Assembly (NCBI GenBank): GCA_001189155.1
Contig: LFCP01000001.1
Location: 147,779-211,778, forward strand
From: Parcubacteria bacterium C7867-006
GTDB taxonomy: Bacteria > Patescibacteriota > Minisyncoccia > Phycocordibacterales > DATDWN01
DNA length: 64,000 nucleotides
Reading direction: 5' to 3'
Both the position numbers and the translations under genes were made by a program. How positions within the stretch are numbered: the stretch's first letter is position 1; each line of letters begins with the position of its first letter. Below, one piece after another: positions 2,820 to 59,333 of this stretch. Below the pieces are notes generated by a model. That model was given only the letters and a program-made list of their open reading frames with translations, ran no database searches and was not told the origin of the DNA.

Positions 2820-3263
2820 TTATTCGTTTATTAATGTGTTAAGTATTTTGACAAATTGTTTTCGTTCATCATTTTGTAACTTTGAAAGCATCTTTGTAAA
2901 AATGTCGAGTTTAATTTGACGAAAGGATTTCCATGCCTTAGGCGTAAGTGCCACTCGTATTGTTCTCCTATCTTTATCATTTACCACACGAGTCACAAGC
3001 TTTTTCTTTTGCATTGTCTCAATAATAGCGGTAACGGATGGAGGAGTAATTTTTAAATAACTGGCTATTTCTTTCATTGATGGATTTCCATTTTCAGCAA
3101 TGTAAGAAAGAGCATCAATTTGTGAAATGGGATACTTAAGATCTTGAGATTCTCGTCTCAATATATCTGAAAGCTTAAGACGAAAAGCAAAAAGTGCTTC
3201 CTCCAAAGAAAGCCCACTACTCTTTAATTTGGGTTGTTTTTTCATACTGTAATATAGTTTCAA
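2820..3263 (-). CDS. MarR-family transcriptional regulator
   Basis: 147 aa with a winged-helix pattern (SMKEIASYLKITPPSVTAIIETMQKKKLVTRVVNDKDRR); first gene of the efflux operon. Confidence 0.7.
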   Translation of the reverse strand: MKLYYSMKKQPKLKSSGLSLEEALFAFRLKLSDILRRESQDLKYPISQIDALSYIAENGNPSMKEIASYLKITPPSVTAIIETMQKKKLVTRVVNDKDRRTIRVALTPKAWKSFRQIKLDIFTKMLSKLQNDERKQFVKILNTLINE

Positions 3264-3334
3264 TTAACTAACTATTAGGTAAACTAACGATATCATATGA
3301 CAATTAAAAAAGCAACTATATTCTTATATTTACA

Positions 3335-3366
3335 AAAAATCACCGATTTGTATCAGTGATTTTTTA
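3335..3366. terminator. Bidirectional intrinsic terminator hairpin
   Basis: aaaaaatcaccgat-ttgt-atcagtgatttttt: a stem flanked by an A-run and a T-run; lies downstream of the minus-strand tRNA-Gln. Confidence 0.5.
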
Positions 3367-3496
3367 TTCTGAATACTGCACTCAGCAGGTATGCCATTTT
3401 CGGAATAGATTCTCGTGTGGTTTATGCATACAAGTCCCGTCAGCTTTACTTCACTATAAAAGCGTTGCACTGACGCGACTCGAGCGGCGCACGAGC

Positions 3497-3570
3497 TGGC
3501 TGCCAGACTTGGACTCGAACCAAGATACTCGCCTCCAGAGGGCGAAGTCCTACCATTAGACGATCTGGCA
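3497..3570 (-). tRNA. tRNA-Gln (anticodon CUG), CCA encoded
   Basis: Reverse complement is TGCCAGATCGTCTAATGGTAGGACTTCGCCCTCTGGAGGCGAGTATCTTGGTTCGAGTCCAAGTCTGGCAGCCA. It has the U1-A72 pair and G73 typical of bacterial tRNA-Gln, anticodon loop CUCUGGA and a TTCGAGT T-loop. Confidence 0.85.
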
Positions 3571-3675
3571 ATACAACTATTTGAGTAGTCTCAAATAGAA
3601 CCTAATAACAGAAGAATACCCGAAAAATAGCCTTTTTACAAGAAATATAGACGTTTATTTTGCTATAATTTAATT

Positions 3676-4275
3676 ATGAAAATTATTAAGCCTGTTTCTC
3701 TGGTCGATGTTAAGAGAGCTTTTGTAATCTCTGATCTTGGGAAAATTAAGGGAAATCAAAAAGGAGTATCTGAAAAAACGTTTGAGAATAATTTTAATAG
3801 AGCAAAAACAAAAGTCCTTAAGTTTTCTGAAGCAGATTTAGATAAACACATAGAATGGTCTAAAAGATTGAATGCTTATAATAATTGTAAATGGTACATT
3901 GCCGAGTTTTCTCCCCCTGAGCTTGGTGTATGGAGGAGATCATCAGGTCTTCCACTCAGTTGGACAAATCAGTCTCTTCTAGAGACATCAAAAAAAATAA
4001 ATAAAGTTCTCAGTAGTGATTCAAAGTTTTTAAAGAAGAGGTCGAGATATGCTATTTATAATATATTAAATAGTAAAAGTCAGATTTCACAAAAGGAAAA
4101 ATATTTATATCCCATTGTTTTTAAAAATAGTGAAGGGACTAGAGGTAGAAGTTATTTAAGATTTAAAACTAAGGGAGATATAGATGATGGGTGTATGAGG
4201 TCTATTGCCATGACTATAAGTGGTAAAAAATCTATTCTGGTATATTTTGGTGTGCCAAAGGAGATTACTAAATAA
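3676..4275 (+). CDS. Hypothetical protein (199 aa)
   Basis: ORF with ATG start; tightly followed by the GIY-YIG and VanW genes (3-nt gap, then a 4-nt overlap). No recognisable domain. Confidence 0.45.
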   Translation: MKIIKPVSLVDVKRAFVISDLGKIKGNQKGVSEKTFENNFNRAKTKVLKFSEADLDKHIEWSKRLNAYNNCKWYIAEFSPPELGVWRRSSGLPLSWTNQSLLETSKKINKVLSSDSKFLKKRSRYAIYNILNSKSQISQKEKYLYPIVFKNSEGTRGRSYLRFKTKGDIDDGCMRSIAMTISGKKSILVYFGVPKEITK

Positions 4276-26693: not shown

Positions 26694-27335
26694 GTGGAAG
26701 TACTTATTATATGTGTTATAATCCCTCTATTATTGTTAACTAAAATTATTATGATGCCAACAGAACAAAGCTTTTTTCAAAGAAATAAAACATGGTTGGT
26801 TATATTAGGTCTTGTTGTTGTTTTAGCTTTTTGGGTAATGGGCAGTTATAACTCACTCATTACACAGGATAAAGCTGTAACAGCGCAGTGGGCTCAGGTA
26901 GATAACCAGTTGCAACGACGTTTTGACTTGATTCCAAATGTTGTTGAGACTGTTAAAGGTGAAATGAAGCAGGAGACTGCAGTATTTACTGCAATAGCGG
27001 AGGCTAGAACTCGCTATTCTGGAGCTACAACTGTAGATCAAAAAGCTGCTGCGGCTTCACAGTATGAATCTGCGATTGGAAGATTACTCGTTATTTCAGA
27101 AAATTATCCAGTTCTCGGCTCTTCAAAGGGTTTCTCTGAGTTAAGAACTCAGTTGGAAGGGGCAGAAAATAGAATTGCTGTTGAAAGAATGAAATACAAT
27201 CAATTGGTTCAGGCTTTTGACACAAGTATAAGTAGATTCCCTGGAATCCTAGTGGCTAAAATGTTTGGATTTGGTGAAAAGTCATATTTTGAAGTTCCGG
27301 AGACAGCTAAAGTTAATCCAGAGGTAAAGTTCTAA
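26694..27335 (+). CDS. LemA-family protein
   Basis: YNSLITQDKAVTAQWAQVDNQLQRRFDLIPNVVETVKG. Confidence 0.75.
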   Translation: MEVLIICVIIPLLLLTKIIMMPTEQSFFQRNKTWLVILGLVVVLAFWVMGSYNSLITQDKAVTAQWAQVDNQLQRRFDLIPNVVETVKGEMKQETAVFTAIAEARTRYSGATTVDQKAAAASQYESAIGRLLVISENYPVLGSSKGFSELRTQLEGAENRIAVERMKYNQLVQAFDTSISRFPGILVAKMFGFGEKSYFEVPETAKVNPEVKF

Positions 27336-31676: not shown

Positions 31677-31988
31677 ATGGCAAAGAAGTTATACGTAGGA
31701 GGTATTGCATATTCTACTTCAGAGACAGCATTGAAAGATGCTTTCGCTCAGGTTGGAGAAGTTACATCTGCTACAATTATCATGGATAGAATGACAGGCC
31801 GATCAAAAGGATTCGGTTTCGTCGAGATGGCAAACGATGCTGACGCAGAGGCTGCTATCGCAAAGTGGAATGGTCAGGAACTAGATGGACGAAAGCTTAC
31901 AGTAAATGAAGCTCGACCTATGGAACCTAGAGCACCACGAACAGGAGGCTTTGATCGTGGAAACGATCGAGGTGGCCGAACATGGTAA
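31677..31988 (+). CDS. RRM-type RNA-binding protein
   Basis: KLYVGGIAYSTSE...RSKGFGFVEM (RNP2/RNP1), Gly/Arg-rich tail. Confidence 0.8.
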   Translation: MAKKLYVGGIAYSTSETALKDAFAQVGEVTSATIIMDRMTGRSKGFGFVEMANDADAEAAIAKWNGQELDGRKLTVNEARPMEPRAPRTGGFDRGNDRGGRTW

Positions 31989-45902: not shown

Positions 45903-46166
45903 ATGAAAAAAGATATACATCCACAAAACTATAGACCAGTACTATTTATCGACAACTCAAATGGCGCTGAGTTTATTATTTCTTCTACTGTAGAAACTAA
46001 AGAGACAGCAAAATCAAAGGCTGATAAGAAAGAATACCCTGTTTACCGAGTTGAAATTTCAAGTGCATCGCACCCTTTCTATACTGGAAACGAGAAATCT
46101 CTAGATACAGCTGGTAGAGCAGAGAAGTTCCGAGCACGAGTTGCTAAAGCGAAAAAATCTAAGTAA
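45903..46166 (+). CDS. rpmE: Ribosomal protein L31
   Basis: MKKDIHPQNYRPV...HPFYTG. Confidence 0.85.
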   Translation: MKKDIHPQNYRPVLFIDNSNGAEFIISSTVETKETAKSKADKKEYPVYRVEISSASHPFYTGNEKSLDTAGRAEKFRARVAKAKKSK

Positions 46167-46318
46167 CGAAGTTTCTTTTTCCTCATAACTTTTCCGTCAC
46201 CGGAATAATTTTCTGCTGAAAATTTTCCTCGCGCTCATGTATCCACTCATTCCGCGATGTGCCGTAAAAGTTACGAGTTCGACGAAACTTCGTTTTTTGT
46301 TATGCTAAACTTAAACCA

Positions 46319-47296
46319 ATGGACCTAGAAAAATTTTTACAAAACCCAAAGACTGCATACCTAGCTCAGAGCTATAAGGCTCTTTTAGAGCAAGAGTCTT
46401 CTACAGAGCAAATGATAGAGAGTGATCCTTCACTTGCTGAGTTAGCGTACTCAGAACTTGAGGGTCTGAAAGAGCAAAAAGAAGCTCTTATGAAACAAAT
46501 GCAAGAGATTGTTTTTGAGGAGGAAAAAGAGGAAGAGTTTCCTAATGAGATTATTCTTGAAGTTAGAGCTGGGGCAGGAGGTGAAGAAGCATCTATTTTT
46601 GCCGAAGATTTGGCTCATATGTATACACGATACGCAGAAAACCAAGGTTGGTCTGTTTCTCCAATAGACGAGTCTAGGAGTGCGGTGGGGGGTTACAAAG
46701 AAGCCTCTTTTGAGATACGAGGACGTGATGTTTATAAACAACTTCGTTTTGAAACAGGTGTTCACAGAGTTCAGAGAATCCCGGCTACAGAGAAAATGGG
46801 GCGTGTTCACACTTCAACAGCAACGGTTGCCGTGCTTCCTGTACGAAAGAAAACTAGTATTGAAATAAAACCAAGTGATTTGGAAATTGAGACATCTCGT
46901 TCTGGTGGCGCTGGAGGACAGAATGTTAACAAAGTGGAAACGGCTGTAAGAATTATACATAAACCAACAGGAATAGATGTTCGCTCTACATCACAGCGAA
47001 GTCAGCTCAAAAATCGTGAAGCGGCAATGAGTATTTTGATAGCAAAACTGGAAAGAATGAAAGAAGAAGAGGAAGCTGCAAAGTATTCAGCAGATAGAAA
47101 GTCACAAGTTGGAACCGCTGATAGATCAGAGAAAATAAGAACATATAATATCCTACAAGACCGTATAACAGACCACCGTATTAAGCAGTCTTGGCACAAT
47201 ATTGAGAAGATTCTAGCTGGGGGACTAGAGCCAATAGTGGAGGCAATGGAGGGCTTTGATGGAACTAGTGTAAATAGTGGAGACTCTGATGAGTAA
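46319..47296 (+). CDS. prfA: Peptide chain release factor 1
   Basis: PAT tripeptide ([17 protein letters not shown]) and GGQ motif ([15 protein letters not shown]). Confidence 0.85.
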
Positions 47297-47340
47297 TTAA
47301 AAAACCTCTAGAAATAGAGTTTTTTTACTATATAAAATAC

Positions 47341-47369
47341 TTGACAAATATATTATATAGTAGTATAAT
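47341..47369 (+). promoter_or_regulatory. Consensus-perfect sigma70 promoter of GC-rich cassette E
   Basis: TTGACA (47341-46), a 17-nt spacer, then TATAAT (47364-69). Confidence 0.65.
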
Positions 47370-47406
47370 TATTAAAGATCTAACAATTTCCTTGAAAGGG
47401 GAAACA

Positions 47407-47796
47407 ATGCCCTATACGAAGACCTTCGCCGTTGTTACCAGCCTTCTCGCTTTTCAGATTGCCATGATGTGGTTCGCAGTTGGTTCCACTTCTGGCGGTA
47501 ACGAGTTCAAGACTGTGACAACCCACAGCTACGACGTTCCGTTCGAAAGGTACTGCGGTTATCTGGAAGAAGTTGCCCATGGAGTCATCCAGTTCGACGG
47601 CAAGGACCCAGTGGACATCGCGTATCTTTTCTTCCGCTCATCGGTTGGGAAGCCTAGCATCCCGCGTATCATCTACGGGGACACAGAGAGACTCAGTAAG
47701 ATTGAGTCGGGTCGTCATTACGACATCGGTGTCCGTCAGTACGGTGGTGGACTAAACTTCCCACGCCGTCTTGATGTAGTCGAGTCGTGCAAGTAG
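47407..47796 (+). CDS. Secreted/membrane-anchored hypothetical protein (GC-rich cassette E, 129 aa)
   Basis: AAGGGG SD lies 5 nt before the ATG. N-terminal signal/TM helix (TKTFAVVTSLLAFQIAMMWFAVGS), GC-rich codons. Confidence 0.55.
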   Translation: MPYTKTFAVVTSLLAFQIAMMWFAVGSTSGGNEFKTVTTHSYDVPFERYCGYLEEVAHGVIQFDGKDPVDIAYLFFRSSVGKPSIPRIIYGDTERLSKIESGRHYDIGVRQYGGGLNFPRRLDVVESCK

Positions 47797-47811
47797 TAGA
47801 TCTGAGCACAA

Positions 47812-47860
47812 GTCGGTGGGTTGATCCCACCGACAGGACCACACATTTGTGTGGTTTTTT
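47812..47860 (+). terminator. Tandem hairpin terminator of cassette E
   Basis: gtcggtggg-ttgat-cccaccgac, then ccacac-attt-gtgtgg followed by tttttt. Confidence 0.7.
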
Positions 47861-47935
47861 CAAATTCAAATATGTCAAAAAACCTAAGCTCTGACTATTG
47901 CACAACATTTATGTTTCTGCTACTATATCCACCAC

Positions 47936-48667
47936 ATGGAAAAAACAAGTAATTCATCATCAAATAGCGGAAACAGCGTTGTAGACGCTCTATTTTCTGC
48001 CGGTGCTCATTTCGGCTTTATAAAGTCTAGACGACACCCATCTACAAAACCTTTTATATACGGAGTAAAAAATAAAATTGAGATATTTGACCTTGAGAAG
48101 ACAAAGGATTCTTTGGATAAAGCAGTGGCTTTTATTGAGAGTATCGCTTCAAAAAATGGTTCAGTTCTATTTGTTAGCGGTAAAAACGAAGCAAAGGGTG
48201 CTATTACAGCAGTAGCTGAGTCTATAAATATGCCTTATGTTGCCGGAAGATTTATTGGAGGAACTTTGACTAACTTTCCAGAAATACGAAAAAGAGTAGA
48301 GAAGCTAGAGTCTCTTGTATCACAGAAAGAAAAAGGAGAACTAGTAAAATACACTAAAAAAGAGAGACTTTTGATTGACCGAGAGATAGATAAATTGCGA
48401 GAGTTTTTCTTTGGTCTTTCTGTTATGAAGAAACTTCCTGATGCTGTATTTATTATTGATGCTAAAAGGGAATCTATCGCTGTAAAAGAGGCAAAATATA
48501 TGGGAATCCCAGTTGTTGCTTTGTGTGGAACAGACAACAATCTAAACGAAGTAGAGTTTCCTATCCCTGGAAATGATGCTTCAAAAGCAAGTATCACATT
48601 TTTCCTAGAGAAAATTGCAGAAGCTTACAAGGCTGGCCAGTTGAAGAAACCTACAGCTACTGTATAA
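47936..48667 (+). CDS. rpsB: Ribosomal protein S2
   Basis: ALFSAGAHFGF...IFDLEKT, typical S2. Confidence 0.85.
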   Translation: MEKTSNSSSNSGNSVVDALFSAGAHFGFIKSRRHPSTKPFIYGVKNKIEIFDLEKTKDSLDKAVAFIESIASKNGSVLFVSGKNEAKGAITAVAESINMPYVAGRFIGGTLTNFPEIRKRVEKLESLVSQKEKGELVKYTKKERLLIDREIDKLREFFFGLSVMKKLPDAVFIIDAKRESIAVKEAKYMGIPVVALCGTDNNLNEVEFPIPGNDASKASITFFLEKIAEAYKAGQLKKPTATV

Positions 48668-48705
48668 TTATCTATTGTCTAGATTAGTTTTAACTTATTT
48701 TAAAT

Positions 48706-49203
48706 ATGACTGAAATAACAACAGAACTCGTAAAGGAATTGCGAGATAAAACAGGTGTCTCTGTAATGCAATGTAAGAAGGCTTTGGAAGAGACAGGTGG
48801 GGATATCGAGAAAGCTACAGCTCTATTGCTTGAAAAAAGCGCTGAAATAGCTGGTAAAAAGAGTGATAGAACTCTAGGAGCCGGTACTATAGGTTCATAC
48901 GTACACTCTACCGGTACAGTTGGAGTTATGGTAGAATTACTATGTGAGACTGACTTCGTAGCAAAGAACGAAGAGTTCAAAGCTTTAGCTCGTGACATAG
49001 CGATGCATGTGTCAGCTACAGATCCAAAGTTTCTAAAATCAGAGGATGCTGGAGCAGACAGTGATCCAGAGTCAGTATTGTTAAACCAACCATTCATAAA
49101 AAATCCGGAAGTTACTATTATTAACTTAGTTCAGTCAGCTACTCAGAAATTTGGTGAAAAAATAGAAGTCTCACGTTTTGTAAGATTTTCAATTTCTCAA
49201 TAA
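48706..49203 (+). CDS. tsf: Elongation factor Ts (short form)
   Basis: ITTELVKELRDKTGVSVMQCKKALEETGGDIEKA (UBA-like N-terminus); short 165 aa form as seen in reduced genomes. Confidence 0.8.
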   Translation: MTEITTELVKELRDKTGVSVMQCKKALEETGGDIEKATALLLEKSAEIAGKKSDRTLGAGTIGSYVHSTGTVGVMVELLCETDFVAKNEEFKALARDIAMHVSATDPKFLKSEDAGADSDPESVLLNQPFIKNPEVTIINLVQSATQKFGEKIEVSRFVRFSISQ

Positions 49204-49211
49204 ATTTATTT

Positions 49212-49592
49212 ATGACAACTATATTATTTTTCGTCTCTCTTTTTGTGCTGGCCTCTCTTGTGGGCTCAAAAGTATTTGAGATAAAAGTTAGAAAAATTGA
49301 GTCTCTCTCAAGTATCTTTGCAAAAGGAGATGAGCAGATACACAAACTAATAGATCTAGCTATTTTCAAATATAACCGATACAAGAAAATTGCTCATATC
49401 TTTGTATTTGAGTTTATTCCTTCATACATATACGAGTTACTCGTAAAAATGAAAGACTACGTCTCAAAGAAGTATTACAGCTCAGCAGACGGTTTTAGGG
49501 GTCGAAGAGTTCTTCGAACTAATGGTTCAGTTTCTTTTTTCCTAGAAAGATTGGCTGATGATAAAAATAGTCCAGAAGTTAGAAAAGTGTAG
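49212..49592 (+). CDS. Hypothetical protein (126 aa)
   Basis: N-terminal TM helix; no recognisable domain. Confidence 0.4.
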   Translation: MTTILFFVSLFVLASLVGSKVFEIKVRKIESLSSIFAKGDEQIHKLIDLAIFKYNRYKKIAHIFVFEFIPSYIYELLVKMKDYVSKKYYSSADGFRGRRVLRTNGSVSFFLERLADDKNSPEVRKV

Positions 49593-49656
49593 GGTTGAAA
49601 ATACTCTAAACTTCTGATACATTAGTAGGGTTGTTTCAAATTTTAGTACCAATATT

Positions 49657-49729
49657 GCCACTTTAGCTCAGTTGGTAGAGCAGCCGTTTTGTAAACGGCA
49701 GGTCGTCAGTTCGAGCCTGACAAGTGGCT
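49657..49729 (+). tRNA. tRNA-Thr (anticodon UGU), CCA not encoded
   Basis: GCCACTTTAGCTCAGTTGGTAGAGCAGCCGTTTTGTAAACGGCAGGTCGTCAGTTCGAGCCTGACAAGTGGCT. Confidence 0.85.
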
Positions 49730-49733
49730 CACT

Positions 49734-49757
49734 AAAATCCCCGCAAGGGGATTTTTG
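49734..49757 (+). terminator. Intrinsic terminator after tRNA-Thr
   Basis: aaaatccccgcaaggggattttt. Confidence 0.7.
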
Positions 49758-49902
49758 CGTAAGACACTTGTTAGGCGAGAACTAGATGGGGGGTCGGAAA
49801 AGAAGGGTCTTTCCCATGTCGGAAGGTAGTGAGAGATAGTGCAATAGGTGGTTTAGTTGGAATCTACCTAGGTTTCAAAATCGGAGAGTAGCTAGTGGCT
49901 AG

Positions 49903-50583
49903 TTATTTTTTTACTGATGTTGTTGTACTAGTCTTCATCTTTTTTAGTTCAGGAACAACTTTCTCTATATCTTCAACACTTTTGAATCCATAGTAAACAT
50001 TATCTTTTATTATCAGAGCAGGAAGTTCACTTTTTATTTTGTTTATTGATATAAGAGTTTTAACTGCTGATAGATCAGCATTATAATCAAAAGAGTATAC
50101 TCGTAAATCTGGATATGTCTCTCTTAATTTTGTTAAAACATAACCCTCTTTTTCGCAGTCTGCACAACTGTCATCTAGTGAGTAGAAATAGATAATTGAT
50201 ATTGGTGTTTTATTACACTTCTGGCTAATCTTGTTCATCAAAAGATAGTCCTTGATTTCTAGTAGGAAGTAGTATTTTTTTAGAGTTTGAACTTCAATAT
50301 CGCTTTCTCCTCGCTCCTTCTCTGTATATGAGAGTTTATCCTCTAGTGTGCCTAGTTCTGTTGATAGGCTACCTGTACCAACATCTTTACAAGAAGATTC
50401 CTCTAGAAGAGAGAATTGAGTCTCTGATGATAGAGTATCAATAGCTATTTTGTCTTGTATGCCTCTGATTTCATCTACTCGCTTTTGGGCAAAATAATTA
50501 CTCATTAAGATAGCAGTAATAAAAATAACCGCTGTTATAGTAAATGATAGTACGTATTGTTTCCAGTTGATTGAATTGTTCAT
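49903..50583 (-). CDS. Membrane-anchored hypothetical protein (possible thioredoxin-like fold)
   Basis: N-terminal TM helix; CADCEKEG motif in the C-terminal half. Confidence 0.4.
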   Translation of the reverse strand: MNNSINWKQYVLSFTITAVIFITAILMSNYFAQKRVDEIRGIQDKIAIDTLSSETQFSLLEESSCKDVGTGSLSTELGTLEDKLSYTEKERGESDIEVQTLKKYYFLLEIKDYLLMNKISQKCNKTPISIIYFYSLDDSCADCEKEGYVLTKLRETYPDLRVYSFDYNADLSAVKTLISINKIKSELPALIIKDNVYYGFKSVEDIEKVVPELKKMKTSTTTSVKK

Positions 50584-50587
50584 ATTG

Positions 50588-51835
50588 TTATCTCCACTTA
50601 GTGTCTACCTTAAAGATGGCGTTAAATGCAGCCTTTATAATCCATATAGGTGCAATAAACATATACAAAGATAGGTAATAAATCAAATCCATACCAATAT
50701 CCAGTTTACCCTCAGACATTTTTTTGGAAATAACAACGAAAGTTATTGTTCCTATTGCAGTAGCTAGTCCAAGTAGGGTTAGTATCTGTGTATTTACATA
50801 AAACAAGTCAAAATTCCAGTTTGGCCAGTGTGGGTTGAATCCTACTGTCCTAAATATGACGTATTGGTTTATTGCGGATCTTATTATGTTAAATATAGAA
50901 ACACTAGATATAAATACTACAGAGATTATTGAAATCGCGGCCATTGGTAGGATTAACATACCAACATTTCCGTATTTTTTTCGGAAAAACATGTGGCGGT
51001 AGTCTTTTGCATTCTGGATAAAACCATGTGACCATCGGATTCTCTGCTTTAGAAGTTTTTTAACTGTATTAGGGGGAACAGTATAGACGAAAGCATTGTG
51101 TGCGTGGACTATTTTAAATCCATTTTCCTGCATACGTAGGGCAATCTCAATATCTTCTGTGTTGTGAGCGTGTCTGTATGGGCCAAGTTTCTCAAAAACT
51201 TCTTTTCGGAAAATAGAAAAAGGTCCAGGAGTGATGTAAATAGCGTTCATATACTGGAACATTTTTCTGGTGAATATACCAAAGCCGTACTCTATTTTTT
51301 GGAGTAGCTGTAGAATAGATTTTGGCTCCCAAAGTTTGATAGATGGAGCAACAGCCATTGTTTCTCTGTCTTGAAAATAATAAACAATCTTTTTTAGGGT
51401 GTCTTTGTGTACGTATGAGTCAGCGTCCAAACATCCAACTAGATCTGTTGTTAGTTTTGATAGTCCATAGTTTAGAGCGGTGTATTTTCCTCCATTTGGT
51501 TTAGTGTGTATTTCTATTTGAGGGTTGTTTTTGAATTTTTGAATAACTTCCCAGGTTTTGTCTGTAGAACCATCATCTACAATCATGATTTTTAGTTTAT
51601 CTTTTGGGTAGTCTAGGTTTAGTAGGGAATGTATTGTTTTGCCTACAGTTTTTTCTTCGTTCCAACAAGGAACTATAATTGTTACTGTTGGGTATTTTTT
51701 TACACCTTGAGCGACCAATTCCTCCTCTTTTTTCATATTTTCCTTGTTTTGGAAATATGTCATTAGTAAAAAGACCTCAAAGTTCAGTGAGGCAAACAAA
51801 AAAACATATGTTACTAGGTTGGTAAAGTCAGGCAT
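50588..51835 (-). CDS. Family 2 glycosyltransferase (processive, membrane-bound)
   Basis: IMIVDDGSTD, QxxRW-like motif (QRIRWSHG), multiple TM helices. Confidence 0.8.
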   Translation of the reverse strand: MPDFTNLVTYVFLFASLNFEVFLLMTYFQNKENMKKEEELVAQGVKKYPTVTIIVPCWNEEKTVGKTIHSLLNLDYPKDKLKIMIVDDGSTDKTWEVIQKFKNNPQIEIHTKPNGGKYTALNYGLSKLTTDLVGCLDADSYVHKDTLKKIVYYFQDRETMAVAPSIKLWEPKSILQLLQKIEYGFGIFTRKMFQYMNAIYITPGPFSIFRKEVFEKLGPYRHAHNTEDIEIALRMQENGFKIVHAHNAFVYTVPPNTVKKLLKQRIRWSHGFIQNAKDYRHMFFRKKYGNVGMLILPMAAISIISVVFISSVSIFNIIRSAINQYVIFRTVGFNPHWPNWNFDLFYVNTQILTLLGLATAIGTITFVVISKKMSEGKLDIGMDLIYYLSLYMFIAPIWIIKAAFNAIFKVDTKWR

Positions 51836-51909
51836 AAAGCGCTTTAATTAACCGTCATACTAGCACTTTTGCTTGGTTTTTTCAATTTTTTGGCTATAAT
51901 AGGGAGATT

Positions 51910-52523
51910 ATGGACTCTAGTCTAAAAATAGATGTTTCTTCTGGTCATTTGCACCCAATCAGTCTAGTTTTGCTTGAAATAAACAAAATATTTTCTGATT
52001 ACTTAGAACACACACATCTCCTGTTCAGGTTAGGTTTATGGAGAAAAATAAACCACCTATTCGTATCATTGCTCCGGGAAAAGTTTTTAGACATGAGGCA
52101 ACAGACGCAACTCACGAAGCTCAGTTTTACCAGTTAGAGGGTTTGGTTGTTGGTGAGAATATTTCTGTAGCTAATTTGAAATGGACTCTAGAAACAATGT
52201 TTGAAAAACTTTTTGGTAAAAAAATGAATATTAGGTTGCGACCAAGTTATTTCCCATTCGTCGAACCTGGTTTTGAAATGGATATGTCTTGTTTCAAATG
52301 TGAAGGAAGGGGTTGTAGTACTTGTAAAAATACTGGATGGATTGAGATCGGTGGCTCAGGAATGGTGCATCCCAAAGTTTTGGAAAGTGCCGGAGTTGAT
52401 TCAAAAAAATATTCTGGTTTCGCTTTTGGTTACGGAGTGGACAGAATTGCGATGCTTAAATACGGAATAGACGATGTTCGTCTACTTTATCAAGGAGATT
52501 TACGTTTGGTTAATCAATTCTAA
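51910..52523 (+). pseudogene. pheS: Phenylalanyl-tRNA synthetase alpha subunit, disrupted (internal deletion plus frameshift) or assembly error
   Basis: Frame 1 (51910..52137) gives ...[22 protein letters not shown], the PheS region before motif 1. Frame 2 (open from 51999) gives [49 protein letters not shown]... (motifs 2 and 3). About 39 codons including motif 1 (the HPAR...DTFY region of class-II motif 1) are missing, and the frames differ. Confidence 0.6.
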
Positions 52524-52524
52524 T

Positions 52525-52749
52525 ATGATTAAAAACGGTATTTATAAACATTCAAAGAAAGGAACTATGTACAAAGTTATTTGTACAGCAAAAAATTCAG
52601 AAACTCTGGAGGATTTTGTTGTTTATGAATCTTTGTATGATAATGAAACTTCAAAATACTGGGTTCGACCAGCATCTATGTTTGAGGATTTGGTGGAAGT
52701 AGATGGAAATAAAGTTCCAAGATTTGTATTGGTAGAAGAAGAAAAATAA
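52525..52749 (+). CDS. DUF1653-family small protein
   Basis: GIYKHSKKGTMYKVICTAKNSETLEDFVVYESLYDN...KYWVRPASMFEDLVEVDGNKVPRF matches the DUF1653 pattern. Confidence 0.6.
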   Translation: MIKNGIYKHSKKGTMYKVICTAKNSETLEDFVVYESLYDNETSKYWVRPASMFEDLVEVDGNKVPRFVLVEEEK

Positions 52750-52750
52750 A

Positions 52751-54658
52751 ATGAAAGTCTCATATAAATGGCTACAAGAATATATAGAAAATGAATTACC
52801 TCCAGTAGAAAGGGTGGTTGAGGCTTTAACTATGCATTCATTTGAGATAGAGGGTGTAGAGGATTTTGGCGACGATAAAATACTAGATGTAAAAGTTTTA
52901 CCAAACAGAACTCATGATTGTTTATCTCACTACGGGATAGCTTCTGAAATAGCTTCTGTCTGTGATTTAAAAAGAAAACCACTATTATCAAAACAAGATT
53001 TTCCAAAAACAGAAGATATAAAATTGTCTATTAATACAAAACTCTGCGTCAGGGCAGTGATGATTTTAATAAAAGATGTGGAAGTAGATGAAAGTCCAGA
53101 GTGGCTAAAAGAAAAGTTGAAAGTCTATGGAAATAAATCAATCAATAACATAGTTGATATAACAAACTATCTGACTTTTGCTTTCGGTCAGCCAATGCAC
53201 GCTTTTGATGCAGATAAAATCGCTAAAAATAAAAAGGACCAATACGAAATAATAATCCGTGACGCTAAAAAAGGAGAGAAAATAACTCTACTAGATGGAA
53301 AGGAATACACACTAGACTCAACCATGATGGTTATTTCAGATACAGAAAAGCCACTGGATGTTGCCGGGGTAATGGGTGGAAAAGATTCTGGAGTAAGCAG
53401 TGAGACAAAAAATATTATTTTATCTCTCTCTCATTTTGATCCTGTTTCTATAAGAAAAACCGCAAAAGCTTTGGGAATCAGAACAGACGCTTCTCAAAGG
53501 TTTGAGAACTCTATATCTCCATCTCTTATTGATCGAAGTTTGCCTTATGCTCTTGAGCTTATTGATGATTTAGTTGGTGGAATAGTTGTTGGCGGAACAG
53601 ATATATATCTAAAGGAACAAAAAGAAACAGTTATATTTATAACACCAGAAAAAATATCAGATATTTTAGGTGTAGATATTTCAGCTGAAGAAATAGTAAA
53701 AACTTTAGACAGACAAAATATAAAATCTGAAATAAAAGGGGGAGATATACTCGTTACTTCACCACTAGAGAGATTGGATTTAGAAATTCCAGAAAATATT
53801 GCAGAGGAGGTTGGGCGAATATACGGGTATGAAAAAGTTTTACCTAAAGAGCTTGGTCCTGGTCTAAAAGTGTCTGTTAATATTGAGGATTATACTTCAA
53901 ACTTGATTAGACTTTCTCTTTTGAAACAAGGATTTTCTGAAATATATACATACTCGTTTACAAATAAAGGTTTAGTTGAGTTAGAAAATCCTATTGCTGG
54001 AGATAAAAGTTTTCTAAGACAAGATTTAATTTCAGGAATGGAAGACTCTCTTGAACACAACTTCAAATACGCTGATTTGCTTGGAATAAAAGAGGTAAAA
54101 CTTTTTGAAATCGGAAAAGTTTTTGGTGGGAAAGGAGAGAAACTTCATTTGTGTATTGGAGTAAAGTTTCCAAAAAATAAAAAAACTCCAAGTGTTGATG
54201 AGGAATTAGCAAAAACTATTCAGAATCTAGAAAATGATTTAGGTATTTCTGTTGGAGATGTATCTATAATGAGCGGAGTGGTTGAGTTTGATATAGATAG
54301 AATTGTAAAAGAAATAAAAATAGGGGATACAAACTATGAAGAAGCTTCTTCTGTTTTGGGTAAAGATGTTTCTTACAAAACTATTTCCCCGTACCCTTTT
54401 GCGGTTAGAGATGTTGCAGTGTTTGTTCCAAACACTGTGAGTGAGGAAGCAGTAACTCAAATAATAAAAGATAAACTGACAGATATTGTTGTTAGATTTT
54501 CATTGTTTGATAAATTCGCAAAACCAGAAAAAACTTCATACGCATTTCGCCTAGTTTTCCAATCAAAAGAAAAGACTCTGACTGATGATGAAATAAATGC
54601 AGTAATGAACCCAATATACGAGACACTAAAAGCTCAAGAAGGCTTCGAAATAAGGTAG
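52751..54658 (+). CDS. pheT: Phenylalanyl-tRNA synthetase beta subunit (short form)
   Basis: B3/B4 and B5 domains, C-terminal FDX-ACB-like domain; 635 aa. Confidence 0.8.
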   Translation: MKVSYKWLQEYIENELPPVERVVEALTMHSFEIEGVEDFGDDKILDVKVLPNRTHDCLSHYGIASEIASVCDLKRKPLLSKQDFPKTEDIKLSINTKLCVRAVMILIKDVEVDESPEWLKEKLKVYGNKSINNIVDITNYLTFAFGQPMHAFDADKIAKNKKDQYEIIIRDAKKGEKITLLDGKEYTLDSTMMVISDTEKPLDVAGVMGGKDSGVSSETKNIILSLSHFDPVSIRKTAKALGIRTDASQRFENSISPSLIDRSLPYALELIDDLVGGIVVGGTDIYLKEQKETVIFITPEKISDILGVDISAEEIVKTLDRQNIKSEIKGGDILVTSPLERLDLEIPENIAEEVGRIYGYEKVLPKELGPGLKVSVNIEDYTSNLIRLSLLKQGFSEIYTYSFTNKGLVELENPIAGDKSFLRQDLISGMEDSLEHNFKYADLLGIKEVKLFEIGKVFGGKGEKLHLCIGVKFPKNKKTPSVDEELAKTIQNLENDLGISVGDVSIMSGVVEFDIDRIVKEIKIGDTNYEEASSVLGKDVSYKTISPYPFAVRDVAVFVPNTVSEEAVTQIIKDKLTDIVVRFSLFDKFAKPEKTSYAFRLVFQSKEKTLTDDEINAVMNPIYETLKAQEGFEIR

Positions 54659-54750
54659 TCTTTAAGCCATATAAATAGACTAAAATAGCTTGTTGTGAGG
54701 ACTGTTTTTTGCTATAATTAATGGGTTAAATTAACTAAAATATCAACAAA

Positions 54751-56838
54751 ATGGCTGGAAAAAAAGATAGTTACGGTGCAGACGCTATACAGATTCTAGA
54801 GGGCTTGGAGCCGGTTAGAAAGCGACCCGGAATGTACATTGGTACAACTGGCCTTGATGGACTACACCACCTTATTACAGAAATTTTCGACAACTCTCGT
54901 GACGAAGCCATGGGTGGTTTTGCGAACGACATTGAGGTTGCACTACTGCCTGGAAACAGAATCCGAGTAACAGATAACGGACGAGGCATCCCAGTTGATA
55001 TTCACAAACAAACAAAAGTTTCAGCGCTTGAAACTATTATGACAACTCTCCACGCTGGAGGAAAGTTCGGTGGAGAAGGAACTGGTTACAAAGTTTCTGG
55101 AGGTTTGCATGGAGTAGGAGCATCTGTTGTAAACGCCTTATCTATCTATTGTAAAGTAACAGTTCACAAGGACGGTGGTATTTATATACAGGAGTATTCT
55201 CAAGGAAAGAGAAAAGCTGCTGTAAAGAAAATCGGAACAACTAAGAAAAATGGAACTATCGTGATGTTTGAACCAGATTCAGCTATTTTCCCAATCATTG
55301 ATTTTGATGCAAAAAGAGTAATGGATCATATGCGACAGCAAGCATATCTTGTAAAAGGTTTGCGTATCACTGTTGTTGATGCTTCAAAATACGAAGGTAA
55401 AATAAAAGAAGATGAAGTTTTCAAAATATCTGAGTTGGGGCTTGAGGTTCCATCAATGTCTTTCTACTTTGAGGGAGGATTACTTTCTCTTGTTAAATTT
55501 ATTAATCACGACCAGAAGCCTGTTCACAAAAATGTTTTCTATGTAGAGAAGAAAACAAATGAGTGGGAATCTGTTGAAGTTTCTCTTCAGTATGTAGATG
55601 ATATTGCGTGCCGACTTTCTGCTTTTGCAAACAACATCAACACTCCAGAAGGAGGAACTCATGTTACTGGTTTCAAAACTGCGCTTACTCGTACACTCAA
55701 CACATACGGACGAAAGAATAATATTATAAAAGAGTCAGAAGATAACTTTACCGGAGAGGATGTTTTGGAGGGACTAACAGCTGTGGTTTCAGTAAAACTA
55801 CGAGAGATTCAGTTTGAGGGACAGACAAAAGCAAAACTTGGAACAGTTGAGGCACAGTCTTCTGTTAACACTATTTTCTCAGAGGCATTTTCACAATTCC
55901 TAGAAGAAAATCCAGATGATGCAAAAGCTATAGTTAATAAAGTTATTCTTGCTCTAAAAGCTCGAAAGGCTGCGAAGGCTGCAAAAGACTCTGTTTTGCG
56001 AAAAGGCGCACTAGAGGGAATGACACTTCCTGGAAAGCTTGCTGACTGTCAGAGTAAATCAGCAGAGGATTCGGAGATATTTATTGTGGAGGGAGATTCC
56101 GCTGGAGGTACAGCAAAAACTGGTAGAGACAGAAAGACACAAGCCATACTTCCGCTCCGAGGAAAAATTTTGAACATTGAACGAGCTCGTCTAGATAGAA
56201 TGCTAGAGTCAGAACAAATTCGAAATCTCGTTATCGCACTCGGAACAGCTATAGGAGATACATTTGATATTAGTAAACTGCGATATCACAAAATTATTAT
56301 TGCAACAGATGCCGACGTGGACGGTGCTCATATTAGAACTTTGATTTTGACATTGTTATACAGATTTTTTAGACCACTTATCGATGGAGGTTTTGTTTAT
56401 ATTGCTCAACCACCTCTATTTAAAATAAAGAAGGGTAAGGAGTTGTTCTATGCGTATTCTGATGCAGAGCGAGATAGTATTATGAAGAAACTTGGTTTCG
56501 CTGATGTTGATCTAAATGAAATAACAACAGACTCTGATGAACCAGAGGTGGAAGGAGAGGAGACAGAAACAGAGGAGTCTGAAAATACTAAAAAATCTGA
56601 CTCTAAAAACGCAAAAACTAAAAAACCATCAATTCAACGATACAAAGGTCTCGGAGAAATGAACGCAGATGAGCTGTGGGAAACTACTATGGATCCAGCT
56701 AGAAGAGTGTTAAAACAAGTAAATATTGGTGATGGTGTTGCAGCAGACAAGGTGTTTGATGTACTCATGGGAAGTGATGTGCCTTCTCGAAAGTCGTTTA
56801 TTCAGTCAAACGCTACAAAAGCTAATTTGGATATCTAA
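54751..56838 (+). CDS. gyrB: DNA gyrase subunit B
   Basis: GHKL ATPase N-terminus (LEGLEPVRKRPGMYIGTTG), Toprim EGDSAGG, C-terminal RYKGLGEM. Confidence 0.85.
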   Translation: MAGKKDSYGADAIQILEGLEPVRKRPGMYIGTTGLDGLHHLITEIFDNSRDEAMGGFANDIEVALLPGNRIRVTDNGRGIPVDIHKQTKVSALETIMTTLHAGGKFGGEGTGYKVSGGLHGVGASVVNALSIYCKVTVHKDGGIYIQEYSQGKRKAAVKKIGTTKKNGTIVMFEPDSAIFPIIDFDAKRVMDHMRQQAYLVKGLRITVVDASKYEGKIKEDEVFKISELGLEVPSMSFYFEGGLLSLVKFINHDQKPVHKNVFYVEKKTNEWESVEVSLQYVDDIACRLSAFANNINTPEGGTHVTGFKTALTRTLNTYGRKNNIIKESEDNFTGEDVLEGLTAVVSVKLREIQFEGQTKAKLGTVEAQSSVNTIFSEAFSQFLEENPDDAKAIVNKVILALKARKAAKAAKDSVLRKGALEGMTLPGKLADCQSKSAEDSEIFIVEGDSAGGTAKTGRDRKTQAILPLRGKILNIERARLDRMLESEQIRNLVIALGTAIGDTFDISKLRYHKIIIATDADVDGAHIRTLILTLLYRFFRPLIDGGFVYIAQPPLFKIKKGKELFYAYSDAERDSIMKKLGFADVDLNEITTDSDEPEVEGEETETEESENTKKSDSKNAKTKKPSIQRYKGLGEMNADELWETTMDPARRVLKQVNIGDGVAADKVFDVLMGSDVPSRKSFIQSNATKANLDI

Positions 56839-57773
56839 TGTCTAAATATCTAGTAACAGGTGGGGCGGGGTTTATTGGTTCGAATATTGTGAAAAGACTA
56901 GTCGAAGAGGGAAAGGATGTGAGAGTTTTAGATAATCTCTCTACAGGAAAGATAAAGAACATCGAGCCTTTTCTCGACAAGATAGAGTTCATTGATGGCG
57001 ACTTTACTGATATTGAAGTTGCTCGGTCTGCTGTAAAAGGCGTGGACTACGTAATACACACAGGGGCTATACCTTCTGTACCACGTTCTATTGATGATCC
57101 AGTAAAAACAAACGCATCAAATATAACCGGAACACTCAACCTCCTCATTGCTTCTCGTGATGAAAAAGTAAAACGTTTTGTGTATTCAGCTTCGTCATCT
57201 GCATATGGAGACTCACCAGTAATGCCGAAGGAAGAAACTATGCCGATAGCTCCAAAGTCTCCATATGCAATACAGAAACTAGTTGGTGAGATGTATTGTC
57301 AGAATTTTTATAAATTATTTGGATTAGAGACTGTGTGTCTACGATACTTTAATGTGTTTGGTCCCAATCAAGATCCAGAGTCTGTTTACTCCGCAGTAAT
57401 ACCTTTGTTTATTAAAAAGCTACAAAAAGGTGAGTCACCAGTTATATTTGGAGACGGACTAACTTCTAGAGATTTTACTTATGTAGATAATAATGTTGAT
57501 GCAAACCTGCGAGCGTGTGTTGCAGACTCAGCTTGTGCAGGAGAGGTTATAAACATTGCTTGTGGGTATGAGATATCACTGAACCAGTTAGTTGAGAAAA
57601 TAAACACGGAGCTTGGAACTGATATAAAACCAGAATATAAAGATGAACGAGCCGGAGATGTAAAACACTCACTAGCAGACATTTTAAAAGCAGAAAAACT
57701 TTTGGGCTACAAACCTCTAGTTAGTTTTGAAGAAGGACTCAGAAAAACAATAGAGTTTTATAAAAACAAATAA
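56838..57773 (+). CDS. NAD-dependent epimerase/dehydratase (UDP-sugar 4-epimerase-like)
   Basis: VTGGAGFIGSN Rossmann motif, YxxxK (YAIQK). Confidence 0.8.
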   Translation: MSKYLVTGGAGFIGSNIVKRLVEEGKDVRVLDNLSTGKIKNIEPFLDKIEFIDGDFTDIEVARSAVKGVDYVIHTGAIPSVPRSIDDPVKTNASNITGTLNLLIASRDEKVKRFVYSASSSAYGDSPVMPKEETMPIAPKSPYAIQKLVGEMYCQNFYKLFGLETVCLRYFNVFGPNQDPESVYSAVIPLFIKKLQKGESPVIFGDGLTSRDFTYVDNNVDANLRACVADSACAGEVINIACGYEISLNQLVEKINTELGTDIKPEYKDERAGDVKHSLADILKAEKLLGYKPLVSFEEGLRKTIEFYKNK

Positions 57774-57774
57774 A

Positions 57775-57802
57775 CAAAAAACCTCCAAATTTGGAGGTTT
57801 TT
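57775..57802. terminator. Bidirectional intrinsic terminator
   Basis: aaaaaacctccaaatttggaggtttttt. Confidence 0.75.
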
Positions 57803-57805
57803 TGT

Positions 57806-58048
57806 TTATTTAGTTTCTTCCTTCTTTGTTTCAGTATACTCCGCCTCTTTCGCTTTAGCTTCTGGGTGTTTTGGAATAATTATTGTAGCAACGATGTAAC
57901 CTAGAATTGCAGGAACAACTCCTGTCATAATTGCTAGCACTATAAAAACAAGCCGAAGAACTGTAGGATCAATATCTACATATTCACCTATACCACCTAT
58001 AACTCCAGCTAGTATTTTGTCATCTTTACTTTTATATAGCTTTCTCAT
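57806..58048 (-). CDS. PspC-domain membrane protein
   Basis: KSKDDKILAGVIGGIGEYVDIDPTVLRLVFIVLAI. Confidence 0.7.
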   Translation of the reverse strand: MRKLYKSKDDKILAGVIGGIGEYVDIDPTVLRLVFIVLAIMTGVVPAILGYIVATIIIPKHPEAKAKEAEYTETKKEETK

Positions 58049-58061
58049 TTTTTTAATTTAA

Positions 58062-59333
58062 CTATTTTTTATTAGCGATTTCTTCTTTTAACTTTGCAAG
58101 AAGTTCTTCTGCTCCCATCTGTCCTAACTGGCCCGCATCTCTTGACTCTAGGGTTACTTTGCCAGCTTCAACTTCTTTATCTCCTAGTACAATCCAATAC
58201 GGTATTTTATTTGTTTTAGCGTCACGAACTTTTGTACCAAGGTTTTCATCGGCAAGATCTATTTCAGAACGAATTCCTGCTTCAATAAGCATCTGGTTAA
58301 TTTTTTGCGCGTACTCATTATGGTTTTCTCGAACAGGAATAACTTTGACCTGAGTAGGTGATAACCATAGCGGGAAAGAGCCTTTGTAGTGTTCGATGAT
58401 AAAGGCCATCACTCTCTCGATAGCTCCGATAGATGATCGGTGTACGACAACAGCCTGTTGCTCAGAGCCATCTTTTGCTGTGTAAACAAGGTTAAATCTT
58501 TTTGGCATAACAAAGTCGTACTGAACAGTGAAAGCTGTATTTTCGATACCTCGAACATCTTTCATTTGGATGTCTATCTTTGGTCCATAGAAAGCGGCTT
58601 CGTCTTTTGCTTCGTTAAACTTTACTCCTTGTCCTTGTAGTACTTCTCTTAGAATTCCTTCAGATTTTTCCCAGGCATCATCATCTTTGTAATACTTTTT
58701 ATCATCAGCTCTGTCGCCAAGAGAAAGCCTGTACCAGAAATCCTCACCCTTTTTTAGTCCAAAAGTTCCAGCTACTTCTTCGATAAGATCTAGAACATTT
58801 TTTACTTCTTCTTTTGCTTGCTCGTCATCCGCACAGATAATGTGTGAGTCGGCAAGACAGAATGAACGTACTCGAACAAGTCCAGATAGGTTTCCAGAAG
58901 CTTCGTATCGGTAAAGTTTTGCTATCTCGGCGATACGCATAGGTAGCTCTCTATATGAGTGAGGCTTTGAAAGGTAGAGCTCAAAATGATGAGGACAAGT
59001 CATTGGTCGGAGCATAAACTCTTCGTCATCCACAACGATAGGAGAGTACATAGTGTCTTTGTAGTATGGATAGTGTCCAGACTTTTTGTACAAATCAATC
59101 TTTGCAATATCAGGAGTCGTTACGTGTTTATATCCACGTTTGATTTCTAGATCTACAACAAACCTTTCTAGTTCACGTCGTATAGTTGTACCTTTTTCGG
59201 TGTATAGTGGGAGACCTTTTCCAACTGTATCTGAGAATACAAATAATCCTAATTCCTTACCAATGACTCGGTGGTCATTTTTGTCCATCTCATTGTTTTT
59301 GTCATTTTCCATAGTAAATACAGCATACCACAA
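58062..59333 (-). CDS. thrS: Threonyl-tRNA synthetase, catalytic plus anticodon-binding domains only (no N-terminal editing domain)
   Basis: DHRVIGKELGLF, class-II motifs, C-terminal anticodon-binding domain; 423 aa. Confidence 0.8.
   Translation of the reverse strand: MWYAVFTMENDKNNEMDKNDHRVIGKELGLFVFSDTVGKGLPLYTEKGTTIRRELERFVVDLEIKRGYKHVTTPDIAKIDLYKKSGHYPYYKDTMYSPIVVDDEEFMLRPMTCPHHFELYLSKPHSYRELPMRIAEIAKLYRYEASGNLSGLVRVRSFCLADSHIICADDEQAKEEVKNVLDLIEEVAGTFGLKKGEDFWYRLSLGDRADDKKYYKDDDAWEKSEGILREVLQGQGVKFNEAKDEAAFYGPKIDIQMKDVRGIENTAFTVQYDFVMPKRFNLVYTAKDGSEQQAVVVHRSSIGAIERVMAFIIEHYKGSFPLWLSPTQVKVIPVRENHNEYAQKINQMLIEAGIRSEIDLADENLGTKVRDAKTNKIPYWIVLGDKEVEAGKVTLESRDAGQLGQMGAEELLAKLKEEIANKK

Follow-up and report, generated by a model that had tools for sequence, protein, structure and literature searches.

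A frameshifting 136-nt gap in the pheS gene of Parcubacteria bacterium C7867-006 is very likely an error of local assembly

pheS is an essential gene with a single copy per genome, and its motif 1 belongs to the class II core. A sequence in which this gene appears broken can be compared with two kinds of described lesion, local errors of metagenome assembly on the one hand and genuine pseudogenes of symbionts on the other. IDBA-UD has been named as an assembler whose local assembly errors place wrong protein sequences in databases, and 13 local assembly errors were found in one CPR genome of 1.13 Mb (Chen et al. 2020, PMC7111523). In the case of another Parcubacterium, the scaffolds needed correction of local scaffolding errors with ra2.py (PMC5220378). 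Known local errors are defined by a consensus that lacks perfect read support, whereas the pheS lesion described here was judged from a comparison of assemblies. The script ra2.py reportedly originates from Brown et al. 2015.

The pheS lesion resembles the local errors of IDBA-UD in that it is isolated, lies on an uncurated scaffold, has carried a truncated gene into GenBank, and is not reproduced by a second assembly; at one lesion in 64 kb, its frequency is of the same order as in the 1.13-Mb genome (PMC7111523). With genuine symbiont pseudogenes it shares the frameshifted and truncated open reading frame (ORF) and the occurrence in a small-genome, probably symbiotic bacterium. However, genuine pseudogenes gain further substitutions and usually arise in dispensable genes, whereas pheS is essential and the window copy, outside the gap, shows 100% identity to a functional allele.

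The DNA analysed, a stretch of 64 kb that is called the window throughout, could be assigned to its source by exact sequence in NCBI nr: the truncated PheS is deposited as KND48194.1 from Parcubacteria bacterium C7867-006, and its contig in that genome, which has a length of 255,141 nt, also encodes PheT (KND48196.1), GyrB (KND48197.1) and LemA (KND48165.1). The metagenome-assembled genome (MAG; LFCP00000000) was obtained from groundwater of the Hanford 300 Area by 2x100 HiSeq sequencing, assembly into scaffolds with IDBA_ud v1.1.0 at default parameters, and ESOM binning, and the coverage was 8-42x across the eight bins of that study (Nelson & Stegen 2015, PMC4508563). The article describes no read-level curation and mentions neither pheS nor frameshifts (PMC4508563). 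The scaffolds are thus the product of an error-prone workflow without curation.

In the window, two pieces of PheS are encoded in different frames (Table 1), as the initial annotation had claimed and as both the reading frames and the Pfam matches bear out. The N-terminal frame opens with the ATG at 51910, is PheS-like up to D30 (51997-51999), and runs into a stop codon at 52135-52137. The C-terminal frame is shut by a TGA at 51996-51998, is PheS-like from 51999 onwards, and ends with a sense codon at 52518-52520 and a TAA stop; the longest ORF in this frame that can be started begins with the ATG at 52038. The 3' part is one frame off the 5' part and bears motifs 2 and 3. Of the 246 positions in the Pfam model PF01409, the C-terminal piece is matched to no more than 82-246, and a fused translation of both pieces covers positions 79-246. 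The 75-aa frameshift ORF matched no family in searches with Pfam and TIGR00468, and it is absent from the public protein sets that were checked.

Table 1. Features of the split pheS locus and its neighbours (window coordinates)
Feature	Position	Strand	Remarks
Perfect TATAAT, predicted	51895-51900		Upstream of AGGGAGA; direct sequence reading
Shine-Dalgarno-like AGGGAGA, predicted	51901..51907	+	3 nt before the pheS ATG; sequence reading alone
pheS 5' part, codons 1-30, original frame	51910..51999	+	100% match to the intact 249-aa PheS of J055_10000035
Deletion junction	51999..52000	+	136 nt (L081 3114-3249) missing; prefix/suffix comparison and megablast
pheS 3' part, codon 76 position 2 to stop	52000..52523	+	100% match to residues 76-249 of the intact protein
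161-aa remnant ORF from internal Met89	52038..52523	+	GenBank entry KND48194.1, named "phenylalanyl-tRNA synthetase alpha chain"
75-aa frameshift ORF	51910..52137	+	30 true PheS residues, then out-of-frame read-through
Family-2 glycosyltransferase, 415 aa, divergent	50588..51835	-	Conserved left neighbour of pheS, likewise in L001-L003
DUF1653 gene between pheS and pheT	52525..52749	+	PF07866, E 3.8e-21
pheT, 635 aa, intact	52751..54658	+	Domains B3_4, B5, CLM, FDX-ACB

The order of pheS and pheT is kept, with pheS upstream of pheT, as in the three related loci L001-L003, and the product of pheT has the same sequence in the second assembly described below and in KND48196.1. The DUF1653 gene, which encodes 74 aa, begins 1 nt past the pheS stop codon and ends 1 nt ahead of pheT. 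At the corresponding position in L001-L003 it is absent, and pheT comes immediately after pheS. The public call of this gene comprises 91 aa from 52474 and overlaps the 3' end of pheS by 50 nt; it probably starts too early.

An intact allele is present in a second assembly. Contig J055_10000035 (165,764 nt) of the JGI dataset 3300001199 contains a pheS of 249 codons for amino acids between an identical glycosyltransferase gene and an identical pheT, and this intact form occupies positions 3024-3773 of the compared locus, L081. The window is 100% identical to L081 on both sides of the lesion, over 3,113 nt on the left (window 48887-51999, L081 1-3113) and over 6,659 nt on the right (window 52000-58658, L081 3250-9908), so that chance is not at issue; in other words, the two sequences agree fully in the 9.8 kb surrounding the site, with the exception of 136 nt. 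A base-by-base comparison showed that the deletion begins at the codon boundary after D30 and comprises nt 91-226 of the coding sequence, i.e. codons 31-75 and the first base of codon 76, removing 45 residues and shifting the frame. The lost residues 31-75 include motif 1 of the class II enzymes with its invariant Pro, as well as the HHPARD..DTFW segment. The internal deletion with frameshift and loss of motif 1 that the initial annotation had proposed is thus borne out by the intact allele, although its size had been put too low, at about 120 nt and about 39 residues instead of 136 nt and 45 residues. The remaining 614 nt of pheS in the window are 100% identical to the intact allele.

The difference between the two alleles is also reflected in the assignment to protein families. 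A protein is assigned to the PheS equivalog family TIGR00468 if its whole-protein score exceeds the curated cut-off, 237.45 bits, which the intact PheS passes with 312.9 bits, whereas the 161-aa remnant scores 206.3 bits and falls below it. The intact allele covers positions 10-246 of PF01409; the window copy does not contain a complete core in one frame. Structures of bacterial PheS include 2RHQ, 4P71, 1PYS/1B70 and 3PCO, and the intact protein aligns with the catalytic module from end to end, residues 8-249 with residues 46-286 of 2rhq_A (E 1.8e-93) and residues 11-249 with residues 103-337 of 4p71_C.

The comparison with the JGI contigs could be extended to 45.5 kb of the window (12741-45513 and 45903-58658), and in this range the 136-nt gap and one SNP are the differences, the sequences being otherwise 99.998% identical. 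The SNP is located at 26799, with G in the window and A in the JGI sequence, and changes LemA from Ile to Val. The deposited LemA call (194 aa) starts later than the 213-aa ORF. One of the JGI contigs, J055_10000324, ends at 31935 and the next, J055_10000035, begins at 31923, with an overlap of 13 nt, and the GenBank scaffold runs through this site. The window therefore bridges two JGI contigs, which indicates that the window and the JGI contigs stem from separate assemblies. A scan of a JGI metagenome-contig collection with 33 nt of the left flank gave no hits, but this collection evidently does not contain even J055_10000035, and a literature search on 3300001199 retrieved no paper.

Taken together, these comparisons argue that the break in pheS is an error of the deposited MAG, made in local assembly or in a scaffold join, and not a property of the organism, a reading that we consider very likely and that had been the first explanation listed in the initial annotation. 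It is from the second assembly that we infer the status of an artefact: the same population, when assembled independently, does not show the lesion, and the presence of an intact gene in an otherwise 99.998% identical sequence favours an artefact over a mutation. Moreover, an essential single-copy gene that shows no other change is unlike a decaying pseudogene. The real gene of the organism would, almost certainly, be an ordinary pheS of 249 aa just upstream of pheT, with the small DUF1653 gene in between.

The sequence at the breakpoints is in accordance with a particular course of events. The two breakpoints (TCTGAT/CTAGGG and GAAAAC/TACTTA) share 0 nt of microhomology, and the sole repeat nearby is the 4-nt CTAG, which would yield a different deletion of 126 nt. 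In a comparison of the deleted segment with relatives, the only long k-mer in common was a 20-mer shared with the Logan contig SRR28161539_3438177 (L089). Slippage or a microhomology-mediated deletion was considered and rejected, because the breakpoints contain neither a direct repeat nor microhomology. The complete lack of microhomology speaks against replication slippage as well as against a jump of the assembly graph through a repeat, and it fits an end-to-end join of scaffold pieces.

The IDBA-UD scaffolder can trim contigs when the distance between them is negative, and Ns can be stripped from its scaffolds. In the presumed course, the de Bruijn graph would have broken inside pheS, and read-pair scaffolding would then have linked two IDBA-UD contigs across a gap that was wrongly sized or collapsed, either because a misestimated or negative distance led to trimming of the next contig or because an N-filler was lost before deposition. 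In both cases the bases in between would disappear and the junction would contain no shared sequence, and the subsequent gene calling would have produced the 161-aa "PheS alpha chain" from an internal Met.

Related genomes contain the segment that is missing from the window. When the intact PheS was compared with 80 related loci of the genome collection, the best match at every locus was unbroken from query residue 1-20 to residue 249, which means that all of them contain the missing segment; the alignment with relatives had been suggested as a check, and the short in-frame linker that would have spoken against a lesion was not found. The loci L001, L002 and L003, all from Patescibacteria, encode proteins with 82%, 80% and 72% identity, respectively (for a C-terminal query of 174 residues), and have the gene order glycosyltransferase-pheS-pheT and an intact motif 1. 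A protein at NCBI with about 94% identity (P0002) is intact and includes the segment. The motif 1 segment is present also in L089, which is about 90% identical. In the first 700 nt of the latter contig (1-700), pheS contains at least three frameshifts, and its gene call also begins at an internal Met, so that it was clustered with the 161-aa remnant of the window; L089 looks like an error-prone assembly.

The alternative that survives best is that the deletion is a genuine allele, carried by a sub-population or a dominant bloom in the Hanford sample of December 2011, and that the assembler followed this path. The cells would then be non-viable, decaying, or charging tRNA-Phe in another way. 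Two observations can be cited for this alternative. First, the SNP that separates the window from the JGI sequence is shared by the Logan contigs of run SRR2043728, so that different genotypes may be involved; the two assemblies could represent slightly different sub-populations. Second, the intact segment is present in none of the SRR2043728 assemblies that could be reached (Logan contigs and protein fragments). On the other hand, pheS is an essential single-copy gene without a second copy in the window, an intact version exists in a 99.998% identical sequence, the lesion lacks microhomology, and there is no decay elsewhere in the gene or the operon, the downstream pheT being intact. We therefore regard a genuine allele as improbable, and still less probable, in our view, is a real deletion allele that was dominant in the bloom of Parcubacteria sampled at Hanford in December 2011. 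If the latter were true, this would be a CPR bacterium whose only pheS is frameshifted and devoid of motif 1, which would mean a dying clonal population or a reliance on external PheRS activity or externally charged tRNA-Phe.

A further argument for an assembly error comes from SRR2043728. The Logan contigs of this run show 100% identity to the window, also at the SNP position 26799, and the run is thus very probably the read set from which the MAG was assembled; it presumably corresponds to SRX1041926. A literature search on SRR2043728 retrieved one unrelated use, in which nothing ties the JGI sample, the SRA run and the MAG to one another. The examined Logan contigs of this run stop short of the junction: contig L091 ends at 50795, and contig L088 begins at 52056, 56 nt from the junction, which indicates that the locus is not cleanly assembled from these reads. 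Since the Logan contigs are short here (1.8-5.9 kb), a break within 56 nt of the junction has a chance of about 4-10% of being a coincidence. A search among Logan protein fragments for sequences identical to the N-terminus with motif 1 recovered only relatives with at most 79% identity and at most 192 aa.

Another explanation listed in the initial annotation, a second, intact pheS in some other part of the genome that would make up for a true pseudogene in the window, is extremely unlikely. A tblastn search with the intact PheS found no second copy in the window, i.e. in 64 kb of a bin of about 0.65 Mb, the next best match having an E value of 0.34. In addition, the broken gene occupies the conserved position between glycosyltransferase and pheT that is also seen in L001-L003, the gene at this very position is intact in the JGI assembly, and, the gap aside, the window copy is free of mutations.

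Two further alternatives have next to no probability. The clean, microhomology-free excision from an otherwise identical sequence resembles an edit, and neither the 161-aa nor the 75-aa ORF had an exact match in a contig index, but an introduction of the lesion after deposition, be it a deliberate or synthetic edit, as had also been suggested, or a corruption of the window, is effectively refuted by the finding that the 161-aa product, which exists only through the deletion, is identical to the GenBank entry KND48194.1. A functional split or recoded PheS, whether it consisted of two separate chains or arose by programmed frameshifting, might be favoured by the perfect conservation of both pieces and the good predicted ribosome-binding site of the 5' piece, yet a joining of the pieces cannot give back the 45 missing residues including motif 1, the arrangement with a short linker is found at none of the 80 related loci, the remnant scores under the cut-off of the PheS family, an intact allele exists, and there is neither a slippery site nor a conserved recoding context.

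The biological significance of the break is small, and the organism almost certainly has the normal, short-type pheS of its lineage. With an assembly error as the very likely cause, KND48194.1 would be a truncation artefact in GenBank, for which the correct 249-aa sequence can be obtained from the JGI contig. Artefacts of this kind depress estimates of genome completeness, because pheS is a standard single-copy marker, and such entries can be mistaken for gene loss or pseudogenization in arguments about the "reduced genomes" of CPR bacteria and spread into protein clusters. The case also illustrates a cheap check that requires no reads, namely to compare such a locus with its counterpart in a separate assembly of the same population.

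The sole biologically interesting point at the locus is the minimal PheRS that is found throughout the lineage. The intact PheS comprises only 249 aa, with 11 residues ahead of GHLHP, and even this allele lacks the coiled-coil domain PF02912 and matches PF01409 only. In 14 patescibacterial relatives (L001-L007, L009, L020, L034, L037, L039, L069, L071), PheS has a length of 244-283 aa, counted from the first start codon, and likewise lacks PF02912. By contrast, the locus set also includes PheS proteins of Firmicutes and Dehalococcoidia, which are 339-357 aa long and contain the coiled-coil domain, and those of the other CPR lineages Moranbacteria and Falkowbacteria (L050, L075) have 341-354 aa. 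The short N-terminus, which the initial annotation had noted in addition, is thus real, but the closest relatives, with 245-255 aa, have the same short N-terminus, and sequence comparison indicates that it is a trait of the lineage and separate from the lesion. In its extent, the intact PheS resembles the 266-residue chain of T. thermophilus in 2AKW/2ALY/2AMC, which we take to be an N-terminally truncated construct. In the PheRS of T. thermophilus, the coiled coil contacts tRNA-Phe, and its absence throughout the lineage suggests an altered binding of the tRNA.

The other subunit is small as well. Typical bacterial PheT proteins have about 790-800 aa and contain the B2 tRNA_bind domain, whereas those of the clade have 631-635 aa (the window protein in Table 1; L001 4538-6433) and consist of B3_4, B5, CLM and FDX-ACB; a domain search gave no match to the B2 OB-fold tRNA_bind domain in the PheT proteins of the clade. 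The PheT encoded at L003 4526-6868 (JAGVCW010000029.1, Candidatus Paceibacterota WC_11) owes its length of 780 aa to an insertion within B5, at aa 353-472, of a cell-wall peptidase domain of the NlpC/P60 type (E 5.5e-17), an odd fusion for a subunit of an aminoacyl-tRNA synthetase.
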